Positions 4,038 to 64,000 of a DNA stretch of 64,000 nucleotides are shown piece by piece. Origin of the DNA: Patescibacteria group bacterium (GTDB lineage Bacteria > Patescibacteriota > Patescibacteriia > Buchananbacterales > UBA6539); the NCBI GenBank assembly GCA_041649675.1, contig JBAZMQ010000006.1, positions 7,003-71,002 of the forward strand. Direction: 5' to 3'. Position 1 is the stretch's first letter, and each line of letters begins with the position of its first letter. Made by a program: the position numbers and the translations under genes. A model generated the notes under the pieces. It made no database searches and was not told the origin of the DNA. It saw only the letters and a program-made list of their open reading frames with translations.

Positions 4038-4594
4038 CCACTTTAATAATTGTTTTGTACTCTTTATTAATTATAGTCGCTACCTTTTCTTTACTGCTTT
4101 CACTGCTAATTGGTACTTCCGCTATTGCTGTGTTCATTGTTAAAGTCCCATTTGTTCCTACACCGCAAAAAAATGTAAAAATAGTAATTGATCAATTAGA
4201 TTTAAAACCGGGCCAAATTTTTTATGACTTAGGTTGTGGGGATGCCCGTTTTTTGATTGAAGCGGCTAAGCGCGGGGCGATGGCAACCGGTTTTGAAATC
4301 GCGCCTTGGGCGATTTGGCGGGCAAAACTAAATATCTTTTTTCAAAAAAGCCAAGCTAAAGTTTTATATAAAAATTTTTATAATGTTAATCTAACCGATG
4401 CTGATGCAGTATTTTGCTTTTTAATTGACGTGGTGATGCCAAAAGTTGAAAAGAAATTGCAACAAGAGCTAAAACCAGGAGCGCTAATTGCCTGCTATGG
4501 ATTCAAACTACCAAACTGGCCCCCGGAAAAAATAGTTGATCTTAAACCCTTTGATAAAAGAGCAAGTAAAATATATATTTATAAAAAACATTAA
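4034..4594 (+). CDS. class I SAM-dependent methyltransferase with N-terminal TM helix
   Basis: DLGCGDARF motif I. Overlaps the trpS stop by 4 nt (ATGA). Confidence 0.6.
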   Translation: MTTLIIVLYSLLIIVATFSLLLSLLIGTSAIAVFIVKVPFVPTPQKNVKIVIDQLDLKPGQIFYDLGCGDARFLIEAAKRGAMATGFEIAPWAIWRAKLNIFFQKSQAKVLYKNFYNVNLTDADAVFCFLIDVVMPKVEKKLQQELKPGALIACYGFKLPNWPPEKIVDLKPFDKRASKIYIYKKH

Positions 4595-9511: not shown

Positions 9512-10318
9512 TTAAATTAATTCTATTTTTTTTAATTCAATTTTTTGACCCAGCCAACGCTCGGCATTATTTGCAAAATTCTGAGTTAAATCAGTTACTA
9601 AAAATTGATGGTCTTTATTTTTTGCCAACTGCTTTTCAATTTCTGGATGACGGGCTAAATAATCTTTTAAACTGCTGGCAACGATAACGGCTGGATCAAA
9701 AACTTTAATATTTTTGCCGGCGGCTTTTTTAAACTGTTTCAGTAGCATTGGATAATGGGTGCAGCCCAAAATTAAAGTATCAATATTTTTGAGCTTTAGC
9801 GGTCGGACATAATAACGAACAATCTTTTGCGTTTCTGGCCGGTTAATAAAACCTTCTTCAACTAACGGCACTAAAAGCGGGCAGGCCTGCTGCAAAACCT
9901 TAACGGCCGGATTTAAAATTTGCAACTCTCTAATATAGGCATTGGAACTGATGGTTGCCTTTGTCCCAACCACACCAATTCTAGCCAAACTGGAAATCTT
10001 GGTTGCTTCTTGAGCTACCGGCCTGATTACGCCCAAAACTCTACCGGCTGGATAATGTTTAGGCAACCACTTTTGCTGAATTTTTCGCAGAGCTTCAGCT
10101 GAAGCGGTATTACAGGCAATAATAATTAACTTGCAACCCTGCTTGAATAAATAATCAACCGCTTGCTCGGTAAATTTATAAATCAGTTCCTGCGAACGAT
10201 TGCCGTAAGGTGCCCGAGCCGTATCACCCAAATACAAAATTTGGTAATTAGGCAACTGCCTCATTACCTCTTTGGTGACGGTTAAACCGCCAAGACCGGA
10301 ATCAAAAATACCAATCAT
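9512..10318 (-). CDS. murI: glutamate racemase
   Basis: N-terminal IGIFDSGLGGLTV and the second cysteine region GCTHYP. Confidence 0.85.
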   Translation of the reverse strand: MIGIFDSGLGGLTVTKEVMRQLPNYQILYLGDTARAPYGNRSQELIYKFTEQAVDYLFKQGCKLIIIACNTASAEALRKIQQKWLPKHYPAGRVLGVIRPVAQEATKISSLARIGVVGTKATISSNAYIRELQILNPAVKVLQQACPLLVPLVEEGFINRPETQKIVRYYVRPLKLKNIDTLILGCTHYPMLLKQFKKAAGKNIKVFDPAVIVASSLKDYLARHPEIEKQLAKNKDHQFLVTDLTQNFANNAERWLGQKIELKKIELI

Positions 10319-10355: not shown

Positions 10356-11120
10356 TTACTTTTTACCCCAGCCGTCAAAAGCGCGCAAAACTTCGGTTGG
10401 AATCATAAAGACAACGGTATTTGACTGATCAGAAGATATGTCGTTAATTGACTGCAAAGTCCGCAAGTGTAAAGCACCGGGCACTTTGGAAAGGGTTTCA
10501 GCTGCCTTGCTTAAATTTTCCGAAGCAATAACTTCACCTTCAGAATTAATAATCACCGCTCGCTTTTCTCTTTCAGCCTCAGCCTGCTTGGCAATCGTTC
10601 GCTTCATGCCTTCAGGCAAAGTAATATCTTTTAATTCAACGTCGGAAATTTGAATACCCCAAGATTCAGAAGATTTATCAACAATCTCTTTAATCCGGCC
10701 AGAAATTTTTTCTCGGTTGGCTAATAATTCATCCAAAGTCACTTCACCGCTAGTGTTTCTCATTGTGGTTTGGGCCAGCTGGGAAATAGCCTGGTTGTAA
10801 TTTTCAACCTCCAACTTAGCTTTGGCCGCATCCGCCACCCGGTAATAAATAACGGCATTGATTTTAACCGAGACATTATCGCGAGTAATCGCTTCTTGAT
10901 CCGGCACATCAGCTACCTTAATTCTGATATCAATCTTAAACATCCGCTGAATACTCAATAAACTGAAAATCCAAGTTAGTCCAGGCTGGCGGGTACCGGT
11001 ATATTTGCCTAAAGTTAAAATTACCGCTCTTTCGTTTTGATCAACTACGCGCAAACCAGACAAAACAATGATGATACCAAAAACAATGATGATACCAAAA
11101 ATAGATAATAGTCCTTCCAT
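10356..11120 (-). CDS. SPFH/band-7 (stomatin/prohibitin-like) membrane protein
   Basis: N-terminal TM helix, then an SPFH core (QNERAVILTLGKY...). Confidence 0.8.
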   Translation of the reverse strand: MEGLLSIFGIIIVFGIIIVLSGLRVVDQNERAVILTLGKYTGTRQPGLTWIFSLLSIQRMFKIDIRIKVADVPDQEAITRDNVSVKINAVIYYRVADAAKAKLEVENYNQAISQLAQTTMRNTSGEVTLDELLANREKISGRIKEIVDKSSESWGIQISDVELKDITLPEGMKRTIAKQAEAEREKRAVIINSEGEVIASENLSKAAETLSKVPGALHLRTLQSINDISSDQSNTVVFMIPTEVLRAFDGWGKK

Positions 11121-14589: not shown

Positions 14590-16182
14590 ATGAATAAAAA
14601 ATTAGTTACAATAACAAAATCTTTAGCCAAAGCCAAGTTTAAATCTCGGCTGGATTTAGTTAAACTGAAAAAAAAATTATCCAACCAGCTAAAAATGAAC
14701 GCCCCGCTTAACTCTGACTTGTTACGAATTTATAAAAATTTATTGGCTAAAAAAATTATTTTACCAAATAAAACCTTAGAACAACTTTTATGCAAACGCG
14801 AAATTCGAACTCTTTCGGGTGTGGCGGTAATTACGGTTTTAACTAAACCCTATCCTTGTCCGGGCCAATGTATTTATTGTCCCAGCGAAAAAGACATGCC
14901 TAAAAGTTATTTAAAAAACGAGCCAGCGGCCGCCCGAGCGTTTGCTACCAAATTTGATCCGTTTGTCCAAACTAAAGTTAGGCTCGACGCTTTAAAAATT
15001 AACGGCCACTCAACCGATAAAATTGAACTGATAGTTTTAGGTGGCAGCTTTAGTGCTTACCCAAAAAATTATCAGGCTTGGTTTATCAAACGCTGCTTTG
15101 AGGCTTTAAACAAAAAACCGGCCAAGAATCTTGCAACTGCCCAAAAGCAAAATGAAACTGCTTTGCATCGCTGCGTTGGTTTAACTTTGGAAACCAGACC
15201 GGACATGATTACGCCTAAAGAAATTGAAAGAATGAGGAATTTGGGCTGTACTCGCGTTGAACTGGGCGTGCAAACAATTTACGACCCTATCTTAAAACTA
15301 AACAAAAGAGGCCAGACTGTCAAACAAACAATTGAGGCAACAAAAATGCTTAAAGCTGCCGGCTTTAAAGTAATGTACCATCTAATGCCTAATTTGCCCG
15401 GCTCAAACTTAAAGTTAGATCTGAAAATGTTTAAAGAAATATTTTCTGGACCAAATTTTCAGCCGGACTTACTAAAAATTTATCCTTGCGTGGTGACAAA
15501 AAATTCAGTTTTATATCACTGGTACCGGCAAAAAAAATTTAAGTCTTATTCAGACAAAGAATTAAAGAATTTATTAATTAAAGTTAAACGATTAATTCCC
15601 CAGTATGTCCGCATCACCCGTTTAATCCGCGATATCCCGGCCGAGAGTATAATTGCTGGCAATAAAATCACAAACTTAAGACAACTAATTGCCCAGGATT
15701 TCAAAGGTTGCAAATGTATCCGATGCCGCGAAGCCGGACATAGCTTAGGAATTAAGAATTATGAAGCAGGAATAAGGAAAAAAAGTTCCTCCATAATTCA
15801 TAATTCCTGCTTCATAATTCAAAAATATAAGGCTAGCGGAGGAACAGAATATTTTCTAAGCTATGACTCAAAGGACAAAAAAATTCTTTATGCTTTTTTG
15901 CGACTAAGAATTAACGGCGATATTAATAATAATTTTATACCCGAACTAAAAGGAGCGGCACTTATTCGCGAACTGCATACTTACGGGCAGATGGCGCAAT
16001 TAGGTCAAATTGGTAAAGTTCAACATCTGGGTTTAGGTAAAATGCTTTTGGCCCAGGCCGAAACCATTGCCAAAAAACAAAAAATAAAAAAAATCGCTGT
16101 AATCTCTGGCATTGGTGTCAGACAATATTATAAAAAATTCGGCTACCATTTAGCCGGTACGTACATGCTAAAAAATTTATAA
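14590..16182 (+). CDS. elp3: Elp3-like radical SAM / GNAT acetyltransferase (tRNA U34 carboxymethyluridine synthase homolog)
   Basis: 530 aa. N-terminal radical-SAM Cys cluster (PCPGQCIYCP). C-terminal GNAT-like region. The overall Elp3 architecture. Confidence 0.75.
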   Translation: MNKKLVTITKSLAKAKFKSRLDLVKLKKKLSNQLKMNAPLNSDLLRIYKNLLAKKIILPNKTLEQLLCKREIRTLSGVAVITVLTKPYPCPGQCIYCPSEKDMPKSYLKNEPAAARAFATKFDPFVQTKVRLDALKINGHSTDKIELIVLGGSFSAYPKNYQAWFIKRCFEALNKKPAKNLATAQKQNETALHRCVGLTLETRPDMITPKEIERMRNLGCTRVELGVQTIYDPILKLNKRGQTVKQTIEATKMLKAAGFKVMYHLMPNLPGSNLKLDLKMFKEIFSGPNFQPDLLKIYPCVVTKNSVLYHWYRQKKFKSYSDKELKNLLIKVKRLIPQYVRITRLIRDIPAESIIAGNKITNLRQLIAQDFKGCKCIRCREAGHSLGIKNYEAGIRKKSSSIIHNSCFIIQKYKASGGTEYFLSYDSKDKKILYAFLRLRINGDINNNFIPELKGAALIRELHTYGQMAQLGQIGKVQHLGLGKMLLAQAETIAKKQKIKKIAVISGIGVRQYYKKFGYHLAGTYMLKNL

Positions 16183-17076: not shown

Positions 17077-17231
17077 GTTATTCTGAGGCCGACTACTCTC
17101 ATTGTTAAGTGAGGCCGAAGAATCTCCTTAACTTAGTGGATCCTTTGGCCCCAAACCTAATTAAGCGGCGACCTCAGGATGACCAGAAGGAGATTCTTTA
17201 CTCTCAAGAATAGCTTGGAGCTCAGAATGAC
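17077..17231 (+). repeat. MITE-like structured repeat, copy 2 (composite; roughly the reverse complement of copy 3)
   Basis: GTTATTCTGAGG ... GAGCTCAGAATGAC, with internal CGAAGAATCTCC / GGAGATTCTT and TCATCCTGAGG sub-repeats. An ATG lies 9 nt downstream. Confidence 0.75.
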
Positions 17232-26126: not shown

Positions 26127-26214
26127 TTGTCATTCTGAAGAAGCGAAGCGGCTGAAAAATCCCAAAAGTTTAAGATTCTTCGCGCTAAAATATCGCTTAG
26201 AGCTCAGAATGACA
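26127..26214 (+). repeat. MITE-like structured repeat, copy 4
   Basis: TTGTCATTCTGAAG ... GAGCTCAGAATGACAG. An ATG lies 10 nt downstream (27-codon ORF). Confidence 0.75.
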
Positions 26215-26331
26215 GTAGGAGATATGCGCCTATTCGTTAATGTTATTTGGATAAAAAAAAGAAGCCAGTCAAACCCTCATGGATCTGACCGGCCGTTGAT
26301 TACTTAAACTTCCCTCCACCTCTTTCTTCGC

Positions 26332-29904: not shown

Positions 29905-30022
29905 TGTCATTCTGAGGGATCCACCCCCTGTCTACCAACAGACAGGCGGGGGTGGAGACCGAAGAATCTCAAACGTTTGGGATTCTTCGCACCCAGATAT
30001 TGCTTGGAGCTCAGAATGACAG
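29905..30022 (+). repeat. MITE-like structured repeat, copy 5
   Basis: TTGTCATTCTGAGG ... GAGCTCAGAATGACAG with inner palindrome CCACCCCCTGTC / GACAGGCGGGGGTGG and CGAAGAATC / GATTCTTCG. An ATG lies 10 nt downstream (15-codon ORF). Confidence 0.8.
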
Positions 30023-30106
30023 TACGAGATATGTACATATTCGTAATGCCATTCGCCTACAAAAAAAGACCAGCCTGAATATCTTTCAAGCTGGGATAAA
30101 AATCCA

Positions 30107-35597: not shown

Positions 35598-35846
35598 ATT
35601 TTTACCCTGCAAAACGTGGTAAATTTAACAATTTAACCTTTTCCCGCCCTGCAATAAACTAGGGCATTAACCTTATCATTTAATATGATAAGGAAAGGTG
35701 TTTTTTCCTGGCTAATAGAAGCCTGGTTGACGTAGCGCGCAAAACATCTTTGGGCGTTTTTAATTTAAAGTTAAGAATCAGAAGTAATGAATTGTGGAAA
35801 TGAATGGCAGTCACGATTCCTAATTTCTAATTCCTAATTTCTAGCT

Positions 35847-51516: not shown

Positions 51517-51590
51517 TGATGAATTATGAATTATGAATTATGAATCGGGAGAGTTGCCATAATTCCTGATTCATAATTCCTAATTCTAGA
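51517..51590. repeat. AT-rich inverted repeat (GAATTAT x3.5 ... ATTCATAATTCCTAATTC)
   Basis: Left arm GAATTATGAATTATGAATTATGAATC is complementary to right arm GATTCATAATTCCTAATTC. Confidence 0.65.
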
Positions 51591-52193: not shown

Positions 52194-52207
52194 TGAACAG
52201 AATAATG

Positions 52208-52290
52208 AATAGTGAATTAAGAATTATGAATTACGAATGATTTAGAGACCTTAATTCCTAATTCTTAATTCCTAATTCTTAATTACATTT
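52208..52290. repeat. AT-rich inverted repeat, second locus (GAATTAAGAATTATGAATTACGAAT ... TTAATTCCTAATTCTTAATTCCTAATTCTTAATTAC)
   Basis: Same word family as 51517-51590. Confidence 0.6.
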
Positions 52291-60333: not shown

Positions 60334-61287
60334 TTATTTTTTTCTTTTCTTATTGCGGCTGACTCTGATTAAACCAGAGCAAGGGATAATTTGAATTCCC
60401 TTCTTTTCCAATTCATCCAAAAAATGATTAACACCGAGAGAATCTGAAGAAATATGGCCGGCAATTACGACATTAATATGATACTTGGCTGCTTCTTTTT
60501 TACGTTCTTCATCCATATGCATACCAATAATCGTACCAATTCCCGCTTGCGACATCTTTTCGTAAATACCCACCGCCCCTTCGGTACCACCGGTAATTTC
60601 GGTCACTACAATTTTGCCGGCGGAATTGTCCGGGGAGCCAACAAAAATTTTGGGACCGGTTTTTCTTTTTATGGCTTCTTGATATTCAGGTACTTTCTTT
60701 AAAACCGCAACCACTTCACCAACAGTTTCTGGCTTGGCTTTTTTGATTAAATTGTCCAAAAATGTCGCAGCCATATTGTCAGCCGGCGTATGAACGCACA
60801 TTAGACCAATATCCAAAAGTTTAGCCGCATCCACGGTCCGGTAATGATTGGAAGCCGAAACTCCCCTGGCAACTTCCGAAATTCTTTCTTTGGTCAAAGA
60901 CTCAGCTACATTGATTGGCACACCGTACATGGCCAAAAGATCAGCTTGCAAATGCATGACGTTACCCAAATCGGCCAAAGCCGAACCTAAAGGATGATGA
61001 GCAATAACTAAATCAACGCCCATTTGTTTAGCAATTAAAAGTTCAGCCGGTTGGATATCAATTCCGACCATCACCTTTTTAATTTCTTTTTTGGAATCAA
61101 CTAAAACTCGGGTGTCCGAATACGGGTTGGTTAACCGCTCGGTATCAAATTCTTTTTTACTTTCCGTTCCCAATTTGTCATATTTGTCTTTGATTTTTCC
61201 AAGAATTTTTTTTACTTTCGCTTCCCCCCGCAGATCGTTAGCAATACCGAGTTTAATTGCCAACGAATAAATTTGTTGGATGTTCAT
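60334..61287 (-). CDS. Nif3-family dinuclear metal-centre protein
   Basis: DLVIAHHP and C-terminal IAGHISSD motifs. Confidence 0.8.
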   Translation of the reverse strand: MNIQQIYSLAIKLGIANDLRGEAKVKKILGKIKDKYDKLGTESKKEFDTERLTNPYSDTRVLVDSKKEIKKVMVGIDIQPAELLIAKQMGVDLVIAHHPLGSALADLGNVMHLQADLLAMYGVPINVAESLTKERISEVARGVSASNHYRTVDAAKLLDIGLMCVHTPADNMAATFLDNLIKKAKPETVGEVVAVLKKVPEYQEAIKRKTGPKIFVGSPDNSAGKIVVTEITGGTEGAVGIYEKMSQAGIGTIIGMHMDEERKKEAAKYHINVVIAGHISSDSLGVNHFLDELEKKGIQIIPCSGLIRVSRNKKRKK

Positions 61288-61312
61288 AATTTAGGAGTTT
61301 AGAAATTAGTGA

Positions 61313-61937
61313 GTTAAGCCAGCTTAACAGCCTTTAGGCTGTTATTCCTTAATATAATCTATAATTGGATAATTTGCAAAACAATCATCGAGCCAGTCTT
61401 GACCAAATTTTTTCAGATAATCTTTATAACTACAAAACTGATAACCTACTAGCTCGTCTAAATTCTTTATTAAATTATGTTTGATCGGATTTTGGTGAAT
61501 ATAGTTCAAATGGCAATAAAAACTTTTCTCATCACTAACAATCTTATCCCAATATTGATACCAAATTTTACGTCCTTTCCGGTTTTCAATTTTATTTAAT
61601 AAATATGAACTTTTACCATTAACTTGACTTATCAGTTTAGCTAAATCAATCCCATTTTCTGCTTTTAACAGTAGATGATAATGATTATTCAAAACAACCC
61701 AACCGGACAAACTAAATTCAAATTCTCTAATTTTTTCAAAAATAACTTTTAATAATATTTCTTTTTTTAATTCATCACGGAAATAAGCTAACCCACCATA
61801 AGTCCTACTGCTAATAAAATAATAAGCAGGTTCCGGCAAATACAGATGTAATGGCCGATGGATACTTCTGTCTTTTGGAAAATTCAACATAGCTTTTTTA
61901 TAACACGCTAAAGCGTGTTAGCCAGCTAAAGACTGGC
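61313..61937 (-). mobile_element. REP-associated tyrosine transposase (RAYT / IS200-like Y1) unit with flanking hairpins
   Basis: CDS 61342..61890 flanked by GTTAAGC-C-AGCTTAAC + ACAGCC-TTTA-GGCTGT on one side, and TAACACGC-TAAA-GCGTGTTA + GCCAG-CTAAAGA-CTGGC on the other. Confidence 0.65.
61342..61890 (-). CDS. REP-associated tyrosine transposase (IS200/IS605 Y1 HuH family)
   Basis: HuH motif NHYHLLLK. About 180 aa. A conserved Tyr region near the C-terminus (YIHQNP). Confidence 0.8.
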   Translation of the reverse strand: MLNFPKDRSIHRPLHLYLPEPAYYFISSRTYGGLAYFRDELKKEILLKVIFEKIREFEFSLSGWVVLNNHYHLLLKAENGIDLAKLISQVNGKSSYLLNKIENRKGRKIWYQYWDKIVSDEKSFYCHLNYIHQNPIKHNLIKNLDELVGYQFCSYKDYLKKFGQDWLDDCFANYPIIDYIKE

Positions 61938-61977
61938 TAAAGGTGGCTATGTTGATTGTATATAGATATTCTAATTC

Positions 61978-64000
61978 CTAACCTTCTAACTTCCTAATTC
62001 CTAGTTTTCCGCCCTGGACTTCAATCATTTTTTCAGCCAAACCCAAAACAATATCATCGGCCAAAGTGGCTTTTTTAAGTTCCAAACCGAATTTGGAAAA
62101 AAATTGATCTAAGCCTTGATGATAAATTACAATCCGATCATTAATTGACAAGCCTGATTCTTTTCGCAATTGATTAATTTGTCTAATTAATTCGCGCAAC
62201 TGGCCTTCCTGTTTTAATTCTTCAGTAAGTTCTATATCTAAACCATCGTTGATATTAAACAAAACTTTTTTGACATTAAGCTCGTCTTCAATTAAGGCCT
62301 GTATCTCCTTGGGTAATTTATTAGCCAAAGAAGTGGTGTAGCTATTTAACGGCTGACGAATTTTAATGCCAGCTTCGGCTCTGGCGGCCAAACCATTTTG
62401 AACAATTTGCAAAGTTAGATCCATTTGCTTAATTAAATCATGATCAATTAATTTCTTGTTTAAATCCGGCCAATCCTCCAGATGAACTGATTCTTTTTTG
62501 CCACCAATTTTTTGATAAATATCTTCAGCGACAAAAGGCATGAATGGCGCAATCAATTTGGAAAATTCCTGCAAAACATAGCCCAAGGTATTAACACCCG
62601 AGGTATCACCGGCCTTAAAACGTTCCCGGGATCGGCGTAAATACCAAGTTGAAAGTTCATTGATAAAGCCACTGATTGGCCGGGCGGCTTTTAAAACATT
62701 ATAATCTTTAAGTTGGGTGGTAATTTCTTCGTTGAGCAAATTTAGCTTGGCTAAAATCCAATGATCCAAAATATTCTTTGGTTTCGGGACAGAAATAGTG
62801 TCATTCTTATACATTAAATAAAAACTTAAAATGTTACCAATCAGCATGACATTTTTTTGCAAAACTTCTTTAACGCCAGTTTCGGAAAAATTCAAACTTT
62901 CAGCCTCAATGACCGGTGAAGTCAACATATAATAACGCAAGGCATCGGCGCCGTAAGTTTCCACTACCAAATCCGGTTCCGGATAATTTTTTAAGCGCTT
63001 GGCCATTTTCTGGCCATCTTGGGCCAAAACTATTCCGTTGACAATCACGTTTTTAAACGCCGGTTTATTAAACAACGCCGTGGCTAAAACCATGAGTGTA
63101 TAAAACCAGCCGCGGGTTTGATCAACACCTTCAGCAATAAATTCAGCTGGAAAATTCTTTTCAAACCACTTTTTATTTTCAAACGGATAATGAACTTGAG
63201 CATAAGGCATGGAACCGGATTCAAACCAACAATCCAAAACATCAGGAATTCGTTTCATCTTCTGGCCGCACTTTTCGCATTTGAATTTTATTTCATCAAT
63301 AATGTGTTTATGTAAATCAACCACTTTTTGGCCGCTTAACTTTTCTAGCTCTTCAATTGAACCAGCAACTTTGATTTCACCACACTCACATTTCCAAACC
63401 GGCAAAGGTGTGCCCCAATAGCGTTGGCGGGAAATTGCCCAATCCGTGGCCCCTTCCAACCATTTACCAAACCGACCCTGCTGCAAATGAGCCGGCGTCC
63501 AATGAACTTTTTTATTGTTGGCAATTAATTTATCTTTAATGGCGGTAACGTCAACAAACCAAGAGTCAGTTGAGTAATTCAAAAGCGGCGTGTCGCAGCG
63601 CCAACAAAACGGATAGCTGTGGGTGAATTCAGCCGCGGCAAATAATAAACCTTTGGTTTCCAAATAAACAACAATTTTTTTGTCCATCAATTGAGGATCG
63701 TCTTTAGATTTAACCAATTGACCCGGCCAATCGGTAACGGCGCTGGTAAATTTACCGGCGGAATCAACATGCAAAATTGTTGGTAATTTTTTTTCCTTAC
63801 CTAAATTCATATCGTCCTGGCCAAAACCAGGGGCAATATGAACTACACCAGTACCATCTTCAGTGGTAACAAAATCAGCGGTTTGAATCGTATAAATATT
63901 TTCCTTGTTTTCTAAATTAGCATTTACAAAGTAATCAAACAACGGTTTGTAGTGCTTACCGATTAAATTTTTGATATCCACAGCGCCAACAATTTTAAAA
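61978..64000 (-). CDS. ileS: isoleucyl-tRNA synthetase (C-terminal ~670 aa; the gene continues beyond the window end)
   Basis: KMAKR (KMSKS variant), VLDCWFESGSMPYAQ, and C-terminal Zn-finger Cys pairs. Confidence 0.85.
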   Translation of the reverse strand, partial: FKIVGAVDIKNLIGKHYKPLFDYFVNANLENKENIYTIQTADFVTTEDGTGVVHIAPGFGQDDMNLGKEKKLPTILHVDSAGKFTSAVTDWPGQLVKSKDDPQLMDKKIVVYLETKGLLFAAAEFTHSYPFCWRCDTPLLNYSTDSWFVDVTAIKDKLIANNKKVHWTPAHLQQGRFGKWLEGATDWAISRQRYWGTPLPVWKCECGEIKVAGSIEELEKLSGQKVVDLHKHIIDEIKFKCEKCGQKMKRIPDVLDCWFESGSMPYAQVHYPFENKKWFEKNFPAEFIAEGVDQTRGWFYTLMVLATALFNKPAFKNVIVNGIVLAQDGQKMAKRLKNYPEPDLVVETYGADALRYYMLTSPVIEAESLNFSETGVKEVLQKNVMLIGNILSFYLMYKNDTISVPKPKNILDHWILAKLNLLNEEITTQLKDYNVLKAARPISGFINELSTWYLRRSRERFKAGDTSGVNTLGYVLQEFSKLIAPFMPFVAEDIYQKIGGKKESVHLEDWPDLNKKLIDHDLIKQMDLTLQIVQNGLAARAEAGIKIRQPLNSYTTSLANKLPKEIQALIEDELNVKKVLFNINDGLDIELTEELKQEGQLRELIRQINQLRKESGLSINDRIVIYHQGLDQFFSKFGLELKKATLADDIVLGLAEKMIEVQGGKLGIRKLEG

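Follow-up and report, generated by a model that had tools for sequence, protein, structure and literature searches.

The question raised by positions 61313-61937 of a 64,000-nucleotide stretch of DNA from a Patescibacteria group bacterium (contig JBAZMQ010000006.1; the whole stretch is hereafter called the window) is whether the small HUH-Y1 transposase gene found there, with hairpins on either side, is a self-copying insertion sequence (IS) of the IS200 type or the gene of a repetitive extragenic palindrome (REP)-associated tyrosine transposase (RAYT). We conclude, with a probability of roughly 0.8, that the locus is a REPtron: a RAYT gene, single-copy in the window, that is bracketed by cognate short inverted palindromes and has been inherited vertically in a fixed chromosomal slot. 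We regard the gene as a domesticated-type gene of a known kind in a tiny Patescibacteria genome. The observations that carry this conclusion are membership of the protein in the RAYT family, its catalytic residues, flanking hairpins with compensatory changes, synteny, and dispersal of the hairpins in relatives. The features of the locus are the following.

61342 to 61890, minus strand: RAYT (TnpA-REP-like HUH-Y1) gene encoding 182 amino acids, the sole open reading frame (ORF) in 61313-61937.
61325-61344: downstream REP-like hairpin, TAACAGCC-TTTA-GGCTGTTA on the plus strand (gene-sense loop TAAA), a perfect stem of 8 bp that overlaps the TAA stop codon.
61901-61920: start-proximal upstream REP-like hairpin, TAACACGC-TAAA-GCGTGTTA on the plus strand (gene-sense loop TTTA), a perfect stem of 8 bp.
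61918-61940: second upstream hairpin, TTAGCCAG-CTAAAGA-CTGGCTAA on the plus strand (gene-sense loop TCTTTAG), a stem of 8 bp.
61313-61328, minus strand: weak second palindrome past the stop codon, GTTAAG-CCAG-CTTAAC, with 6 bp, 4 of them A-T.
61317 to 61948, minus strand: entire RAYT unit (hairpins, gene and hairpin), the segment that differs from the RAYT-less locus L058, with both flanks aligning.

An earlier note on this DNA had called the protein a RAYT on the basis of its length and the motif NHYHLLLK, and this identity is confirmed by profile, sequence and structure comparisons. The protein scores 84.3 bits against the NCBIfam REP_Tyr_transpos model NF047646, passing its cut-off of 80, and 20.1 bits against the IS200/IS605 model NF033573, below the cut-off of 55; the Pfam Y1_Tnp model gives 37 bits. 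When the single protein was searched against the sequences of the entire PDB, the only meaningful match was 4ER8, E. coli TnpA-REP, also known as RayT (YafM). A profile built from 32 homologues recovers 4ER8 at 1.7e-13 and IS200/IS605 transposases at 1e-4 to 0.16. Likewise, a Foldseek search with an AlphaFold model of the protein (predicted local distance difference test score 90.2) places 4ER8 at the top (E 1.7e-9, template modeling (TM) scores of 0.66/0.72, 171 columns, ~18% identity in the structural alignment), followed by the TnpAs of IS608, ISDra2 and Sulfolobus at ~1e-5 and a TM score of 0.49. E. coli TnpA-REP is thus the best match to the window RAYT in both sequence and fold.

The HUH motif of the window RAYT is H70-Y-H72, within NNHYHLLLK, and its catalytic tyrosine is Tyr130, within NYIHQNPIKH. 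These segments align with HMH and DYIYINPVKH of 4ER8, so that the motif NHYH of the window protein differs from that of E. coli TnpA-REP at the residue between the histidines. In the alignment of the 32 homologues H70, Y130, N134 and S154, the last of which lies in the C-terminal tail (FCSY), are invariant, and N69, Y71, H72 and P135 are nearly so; the catalytic tyrosine is therefore conserved. In every RAYT lineage of this alignment the ORF is intact and the catalytic residues are kept. In the homologous locus L010, where the HUH motif reads NHHH, the gene call (P0004) begins at an internal TTG, and 39 nt further upstream (L010:9889-9927) is the conserved ATG (MLPKNRNKHRP...), which is the one paired in the leader stem that is described below. 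A protein identical to the window RAYT is present at NCBI, labelled as a transposase from a Patescibacteria metagenome-assembled genome. Members of the family occur chiefly in Patescibacteria, with some in Chloroflexota and Actinomycetes, and the narrow subfamily is small, with 43 clusters (50% identity, E <=1e-30) compared with 5136 Y1 relatives (E <=1e-3).

Judged by its sequence, then, the window protein is a RAYT, that is, a class 2 (Y---NP) TnpA-Y1, and not an IS200 TnpA; the traits of class 1 TnpAs (Y---Q and DH[VI]H; PMC6006769 Table 1) are absent from it. Going by motifs only, its closest counterparts in the scheme of Quentin et al. appear to be subclasses 2.6 and 2.8. Subclass 2.8, described from Cyanobacteria, has the motifs NHYH and W[YH] and long REPs with GT[AG]G (PMC6006769). 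Subclass 2.6, described from Bacteroidetes and equivalent to Bertels group 5, has YIH[QN]NP, a median length of 179 amino acids and an SS tail motif, and its genes are bordered by secondary structures that are atypical, lack GT[AG]G and have copies elsewhere in the genome (PMC6006769). The window RAYT resembles subclass 2.8 in its NHYH and W-Y motifs and subclass 2.6 in its YIHQNP motif, its length of 182 amino acids, its FxSY tail and its atypical hairpins. The host groups differ, however, since the family of the window protein is found mainly in Patescibacteria as opposed to Bacteroidetes (2.6) or Cyanobacteria (2.8).

We scanned the whole 64 kb for perfect hairpins and found that three strong ones touch the RAYT gene. 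Those at 61325-61344 and 61901-61920 are mutually inverted copies, and a GC to CG swap between them preserves pairing, so the inverted arrangement that the earlier note had likened to REP-RAYT-REP loci is indeed present. The degenerate 20-mer TAACASSCTTTAGSSTGTTA has four strand-matches in the window, all of them at these two hairpins, where shuffled sequences lead one to expect 0.04. Two hairpins had been reported before the start codon, and both were found again, one with loop TAAA (61901-61920) and one with loop CTAAAGA (61918-61940); the latter may alternatively be taken as a C-TAAA-G hairpin (C-TTTA-G in gene sense) with one bulged base, a T in gene sense. Two hairpins with TTTA loops had likewise been placed past the stop codon. 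The strong one at 61325-61344 stands, while the other, at 61313-61328, is weak and has the loop CCAG. This weak palindrome has 4 nt in common with the strong hairpin next to it and is missing from the predicted fold; from its sequence, it is probably what is left, after truncation, of the AGCCAG hairpin across the gene. The interval that the earlier note had marked, 61313-61937, nearly coincides with the segment 61317-61948 that varies with respect to RAYT-less L058.

We also considered the downstream hairpin as an intrinsic terminator and rejected it as one: its T-rich tail is on the antisense strand only, no gene reads into it from that side, and there is no T-run on the sense strand.

Hairpins adjoin the RAYT gene at all of the homologous loci that we examined, and the inverted arrangement of palindromes around the gene recurs in homologues as well. 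Most of these hairpins have a TTTA/TAAA loop closed by C-G; the exceptions are L063, where the loop is closed by A-T, and L062, where the loops are GNNA. The stems vary yet stay complementary, with ACACGC and ACAGCC in the window, CACAC and ACAGTC in L003, ACAGCC in L009, ACGGTC and ACACGC in L010, CCTCAC and CCCGAC in L015, and ACACAC in L014; in L061, from Chloroflexota, cores of GGC-TTTA-GCC lie within longer inverted repeats. The orthologous downstream hairpins of L003 and L009 have stems that differ from those of the window. Nineteen of the 33 CTTTAG/CTAAAG hexamers that lie <=250 nt from RAYT genes are hairpin centres, compared with 6 of the 142 found elsewhere in the same loci (Fisher p = 7e-12), a count that is anchored on the hexamer and not on pairing. 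That the C-TTTA-G loop is conserved while the stems co-vary freely suggests recognition by the protein of the loop and the hairpin's shape, and not of the stem sequence.

Four of the six hexamer hairpins found elsewhere in the loci are inverted doublets of the same hairpins at a distance from the gene. One, at L010:11499-11550, consists of GGTCTGACGGTC-TTTA-GACCGT and ACACGC-TAAA-GCGTGTCAGACC, and a second inverted doublet away from the RAYT gene is at L015:16921-16965. By their sequences, the doublets of L010 and L015 are in the arrangement of REP doublets forming hairpins (REPINs). Locus L059, which has no RAYT at the corresponding gene junction, carries a solo hairpin there, GAGTCCCGAC-TAAA-GTCGGGACTC at 9951-9974, in a 66-nt spacer; it is of the same REP flavour as the hairpins beside the distant RAYT of L015. 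In L062, a Patescibacteria locus whose RAYT is 38% identical to that of the window, a hairpin of the type TGACAGAC-GATA-GTCTGTCA (TGACA[GA]AC-GAYA) occurs in three intergenic spacers across 20 kb, in its full form at 10691 and 19405 and one base shorter at 4211. The same locus has, in inverted orientation, two hairpins related to this type, GACACCC-TCAC-GGGTGTC and TGACAGCC-GTAA-GGCTGTCA, at L062:10223-10310, in frame directly past the HUH motif of the RAYT, to which this doublet contributes ~31 residues. Insertions at this position are also seen in several other homologues, e.g., P0039, P0041 and P0045. REP insertions that lie in frame between the HUH and Tyr motifs are known from subclass 2.4, and REP insertions are also known from some members of subclass 2.8 (PMC6006769). 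In the relatives, the hairpins have dispersed, at low density and in the form of REPIN-like inverted doublets.

The window locus and the E. coli REPtron have in common the HUH and Y---NP motifs, a single-copy gene (here, per 64 kb) and inverted cognate palindromes. E. coli has several hundred REPs per genome, whereas we find 0 extra copies in 64 kb, and the hairpins of the family described here are unlike E. coli REPs in their small size (6-8 bp), their conserved C-TTTA-G loop and their lack of a 5' GTAG foot.

The RAYT gene has a NIF3-family gene (60334 to 61287, minus strand) on one side and, on the other, the 3' end of the gene for isoleucyl-tRNA synthetase (IleRS; stop at 61978, minus strand), and the nearest homologues of the NIF3 protein are from Candidatus Buchananbacteria. 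The gene order IleRS, RAYT, NIF3 is common to the window, L003-L008, L032 and L010-L013; the order in L032 rests on an ORF list and tblastn matches, and the contigs of L009 and L054 are too short to include both neighbours. The RAYT orthologues are 66% identical to that of the window in L003-L008, 70-71% in L009, L032 and L054, and 52% in L010-L013. Pairwise, the RAYTs of the window, L003 and L032 are 65-70% identical to one another and 53-56% identical to that of L010, and the NIF3 proteins are 79-86% identical within this group and 74-77% identical to that of L010. The RAYT, NIF3 and the C-terminus of IleRS show the same order of identity, with L010 as the outgroup in all three. RAYT homologues at other chromosomal sites (L014 and L015) are more distant, at 43-51% identity, and plasmid and phage collections yield distant RAYT matches only (<=32% identity). 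Bertels et al. describe RAYTs as having a vertical, housekeeping-like pattern of inheritance (PMC5581495); the pattern here is of this kind and not that of an IS. The IleRS-NIF3 junction is nonetheless a variable slot: IleRS adjoins NIF3 with no gene between them in L059 (9934-10001) and L060 (9919-10001), and L058 has in this place (9545-10001) a gene for a 23S_rRNA_IVP/bAvd-like four-helix bundle.

Upstream of the start codon, the hairpins are part of a larger predicted structure whose closing stem is formed by two segments.

61946 to 61964, minus strand: conserved block TATATACAATCAACATAGC (gene sense, 19 nt), whose 3' ten bases, TCAACATAGC (61946-61955), are the 5' arm of the closing stem.
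61884 to 61893, minus strand: 3' arm of the closing stem, GCTATGTTGA (gene sense), which holds the ATG start codon and is part of the minimum-energy fold.

The 96-nt leader is predicted to fold into a three-way junction in which this 10-bp stem encloses both upstream hairpins, with a folding energy of -32 kcal/mol as RNA (z -6.65; z -5.95 as DNA). All five orthologous leaders have the closing stem in their minimum-energy fold (z -3.9 to -13.5), where it encloses one to three hairpins; in L032 one G-C pair of the stem is changed to G-U, a substitution that only RNA tolerates. The block TATATACAATCAACATAGC is identical in the window, L003-L006, L008, L009 and L032, though the RAYTs there are only 66-71% identical to that of the window, and just CAACATAGC of it is retained in L010. 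A sigma-70 consensus scan of the block as TATATACAAT gave no promoter match, and an Rfam search with the leader gave a chance sub-threshold match only. The leader stem most likely holds down translation of the enzyme. In the IS200 tnpA gene of Salmonella, a leader stem-loop occludes the ribosome-binding site. The leader described here is alike in that a conserved 5' leader stem is predicted to sequester the translation start. Unlike that of IS200, its stem would join the ATG itself to a distal block upstream, with one to three REP-like hairpins in between.

We infer DNA binding and cleavage and mobilisation as activities of the window protein, and translational repression as the role of its leader. 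On the model of E. coli TnpA-REP, the protein would bind to its hairpin, folded in single-stranded DNA, H70 and H72 of the HUH motif would hold a divalent metal, and Tyr130 would cut and rejoin the strand beside the hairpin. The 10-bp stem that the upstream block and the ATG region form around the upstream hairpins would restrain translation. The gene, in this reading, has descended vertically between IleRS and NIF3 in a Buchananbacteria-like lineage of Patescibacteria.

Several observations weigh against the REPtron reading. The canonical REP foot, 5' GT[AG]G, is absent from the window hairpins, whose feet are TGGC/AGCT, and it is also absent in relatives, whose feet are GGTCTG in L010 and GGACT/GGAGT in L015. 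The hairpins are therefore atypical REPs, and REPs of this kind, lacking GT[AG]G, have been reported for subclasses 2.6 and 3 (PMC6006769). In addition, neither flanking hairpin has a further copy in the 64 kb at <=3 mismatches, and as a result the trait that defines REPs, a large number of scattered extragenic copies, is not demonstrated for the source genome. The earlier note had named two findings that would speak against a RAYT with its REPs, namely a better alignment with IS200 TnpA and hairpins unique to this locus; the former was not found, and the latter is the case within the 64 kb. With respect to inheritance, the NIF3 proteins of the RAYT-less loci L058, L059 and L060 are as close to that of the window as the NIF3 of L010, or closer, and the carriers of RAYT are not monophyletic by NIF3 similarity. 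Vertical descent would thus need several losses or replacements. L058 also retains TATATACAATCAACATGGC of the conserved leader block (with one A>G change) in the absence of a RAYT, so the block may have an additional or different role. Finally, the closing stem of the leader is nearly invariant, and there is therefore essentially no covariation to support it.

An alternative that takes the variable slot as its starting point is that the region between IleRS and NIF3 is a recombination hot spot into which the RAYT unit, as a site-specific mobile cassette, has moved independently in several lineages, instead of descending vertically. In favour of this, the junction has the bAvd-like gene in L058 and no gene in L059 and L060, carriers and non-carriers interleave by NIF3 identity, and similar inverted heptamer-periodic arms, described below, bracket the variable segment in both the window and L058. 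Against it, RAYT identities fall in the same order as the NIF3 and IleRS identities do, L010 being the outgroup throughout, and the RAYT homologues at other sites (L014 and L015) are more distant than those in the slot. None of the carriers L003, L032 and L010 has the heptamer arms, and RAYTs that are nearly identical were not encountered in differing genomic surroundings. We therefore consider the cassette unlikely. An autonomous IS200-type element, in which a TnpA gene with left- and right-end hairpins copies itself, is in our view scarcely tenable, even though the Y1_Tnp fold is shared with IS200, hairpins lie at both ends of the gene and the IleRS-NIF3 junction is empty in some relatives. 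The TnpAs of IS200/IS605 elements such as IS608 and ISDra2 resemble the window protein in their HUH-Y1 fold and in the recognition of hairpins on single-stranded DNA, which is predicted here. They differ in the Tyr motif, which in the window protein is the Y---NP of class 2 and not Y---Q (PMC6006769 Table 1), and it is the RAYT model, not the IS200 model, whose cut-off the protein passes. The end hairpins of the window are inverted copies, in contrast to the direct, same-strand subterminal hairpins of IS200-type ends, which lack inverted repeats, and there is no tnpB at the locus. Neither ends of that type nor multiple near-identical copies were found in the 64 kb. Whereas IS200/IS605 elements are typically multi-copy, the window holds one RAYT copy without further fragments, and the same slot is occupied across lineages by RAYTs at 52-70% identity that diverge in step with their neighbours.

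The hairpins could instead be RNA-level elements, a terminator and a leader of IleRS-RAYT-NIF3 transcripts, that are not substrates of the protein, which itself may then be an inactive relic. In its favour, the upstream hairpins belong to a predicted leader structure of the mRNA in which the ATG is sequestered, the downstream hairpin and the stop codon overlap, and dispersed copies are lacking in the 64 kb. Against it, the loop motif also borders RAYT homologues whose gene neighbourhoods are unrelated (L014, L015 and L061), the motif is 30-fold enriched beside RAYT genes, and identical hairpins are found as inverted doublets kilobases away from these genes and, in frame, within one of them. 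The downstream hairpin also lacks a sense-strand T-run, and in every lineage the ORF is intact and its catalytic residues are kept. We judge the RNA-level account to be very unlikely. A bolder version of the REPtron reading, which we consider doubtful, is that Patescibacteria (candidate phyla radiation (CPR), ~1 Mb) keep a REP-RAYT lineage of their own, whose REPs are of a distinct type (stem of 6-8 bp, invariant C-TTTA-G loop, no GTAG foot), with very low copy number and long-term residence in a fixed slot. If this were true, the enzyme would be retained for a host function, e.g., processing of its own hairpins or control of IleRS-NIF3, and not for repeat proliferation, and the leader built around REP hairpins would be an autoregulatory device in which the DNA/RNA target of the enzyme doubles as a translational switch.

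RAYTs are reported to be concentrated in larger genomes and were absent from the 35 Mollicute species sampled (PMC6006769). A conserved, syntenic RAYT with cognate hairpins in the ultra-small genomes of Patescibacteria runs against this trend, and a full-text literature search returned no paper linking RAYTs or REPs with Patescibacteria or CPR. The points of interest are the ultra-small host genome, the conserved loop signature and the leader built around hairpins. The conceptual gain is modest, being a further case for RAYTs behaving as host genes and not as selfish transposases. For annotation, short hairpins centred on CTTTAG beside a protein of ~180 amino acids with NHYH...YIHQNP can be taken to mark REP-type elements in these genomes.

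The earlier note had also suggested that this RAYT drives one of the repeat families of the window, and this suggestion is not supported: the flanking hairpins have no copies elsewhere in the 64 kb, and the conspicuous heptamer family is unrelated to them. The other 65 CTTTAG/CTAAAG hexamers of the window include 0 with >=4 complementary flanking bases, and 0 even at 3. Scans of genome and metagenome contig collections with TAACASSCTTTAGSSTGTTA gave 19 and 22 loci, respectively, which is about the number that we estimate for random matches, and the source contig was not among them; ~80% of the matches are perfectly paired, compared with 25% by chance. As by-products, these scans yielded the locus with a 70%-identical RAYT (L032/L054) and another Patescibacteria contig (L017/L028/L044) with two such hairpins ~9 kb apart. 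They also touched on a repeat of at least ~115 nt with conserved flanks around TAACACGC-TTTA-GCGTGTTA, at L040:12018-12215, L041:1363-1721 and L048:251-365. These three contigs, two of them from one metagenome, are otherwise unalignable, and their sequences suggest a dispersed REP- or MITE-like (miniature inverted-repeat transposable element-like) element of another organism.

The heptamer family consists of heptamer-periodic AT-rich palindromes at 15746-15822, 35770-35843, 51518-51590 and 52197-52285, each with a purine-rich arm (e.g., GAATTAGGAATTATGAA), a short loop and a pyrimidine-rich arm (e.g., TTCATAATTCCTAATTC). We considered these palindromes as REPINs of the window RAYT and rejected them, because they have no sequence in common with the flanking hairpins and a pattern search detected none in the carriers L003, L004 and L010. 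Arms of the heptamer type at 61288-61316 and 61968-62004 bracket the whole RAYT unit and overlap the last IleRS codons. The pattern search for them, positive in the window, gave no match in L003, L004, L010 or L058-L060; the similar arms that bracket the bAvd-like gene of L058 were missed by it and were spotted by eye only.

A further repeat family, at 17191-17231, 26154-26237 and 29961-30044, with up to 84 nt at 82% identity, contains GCTTGGAGCTCAGAATGAC and is unrelated to the RAYT hairpins. Several of the heptamer palindromes stop right at the start codon of the downstream gene, and one 530-aa ORF (14590-16182) in the mechanical ORF list passes straight through the palindrome at 15746-15822.

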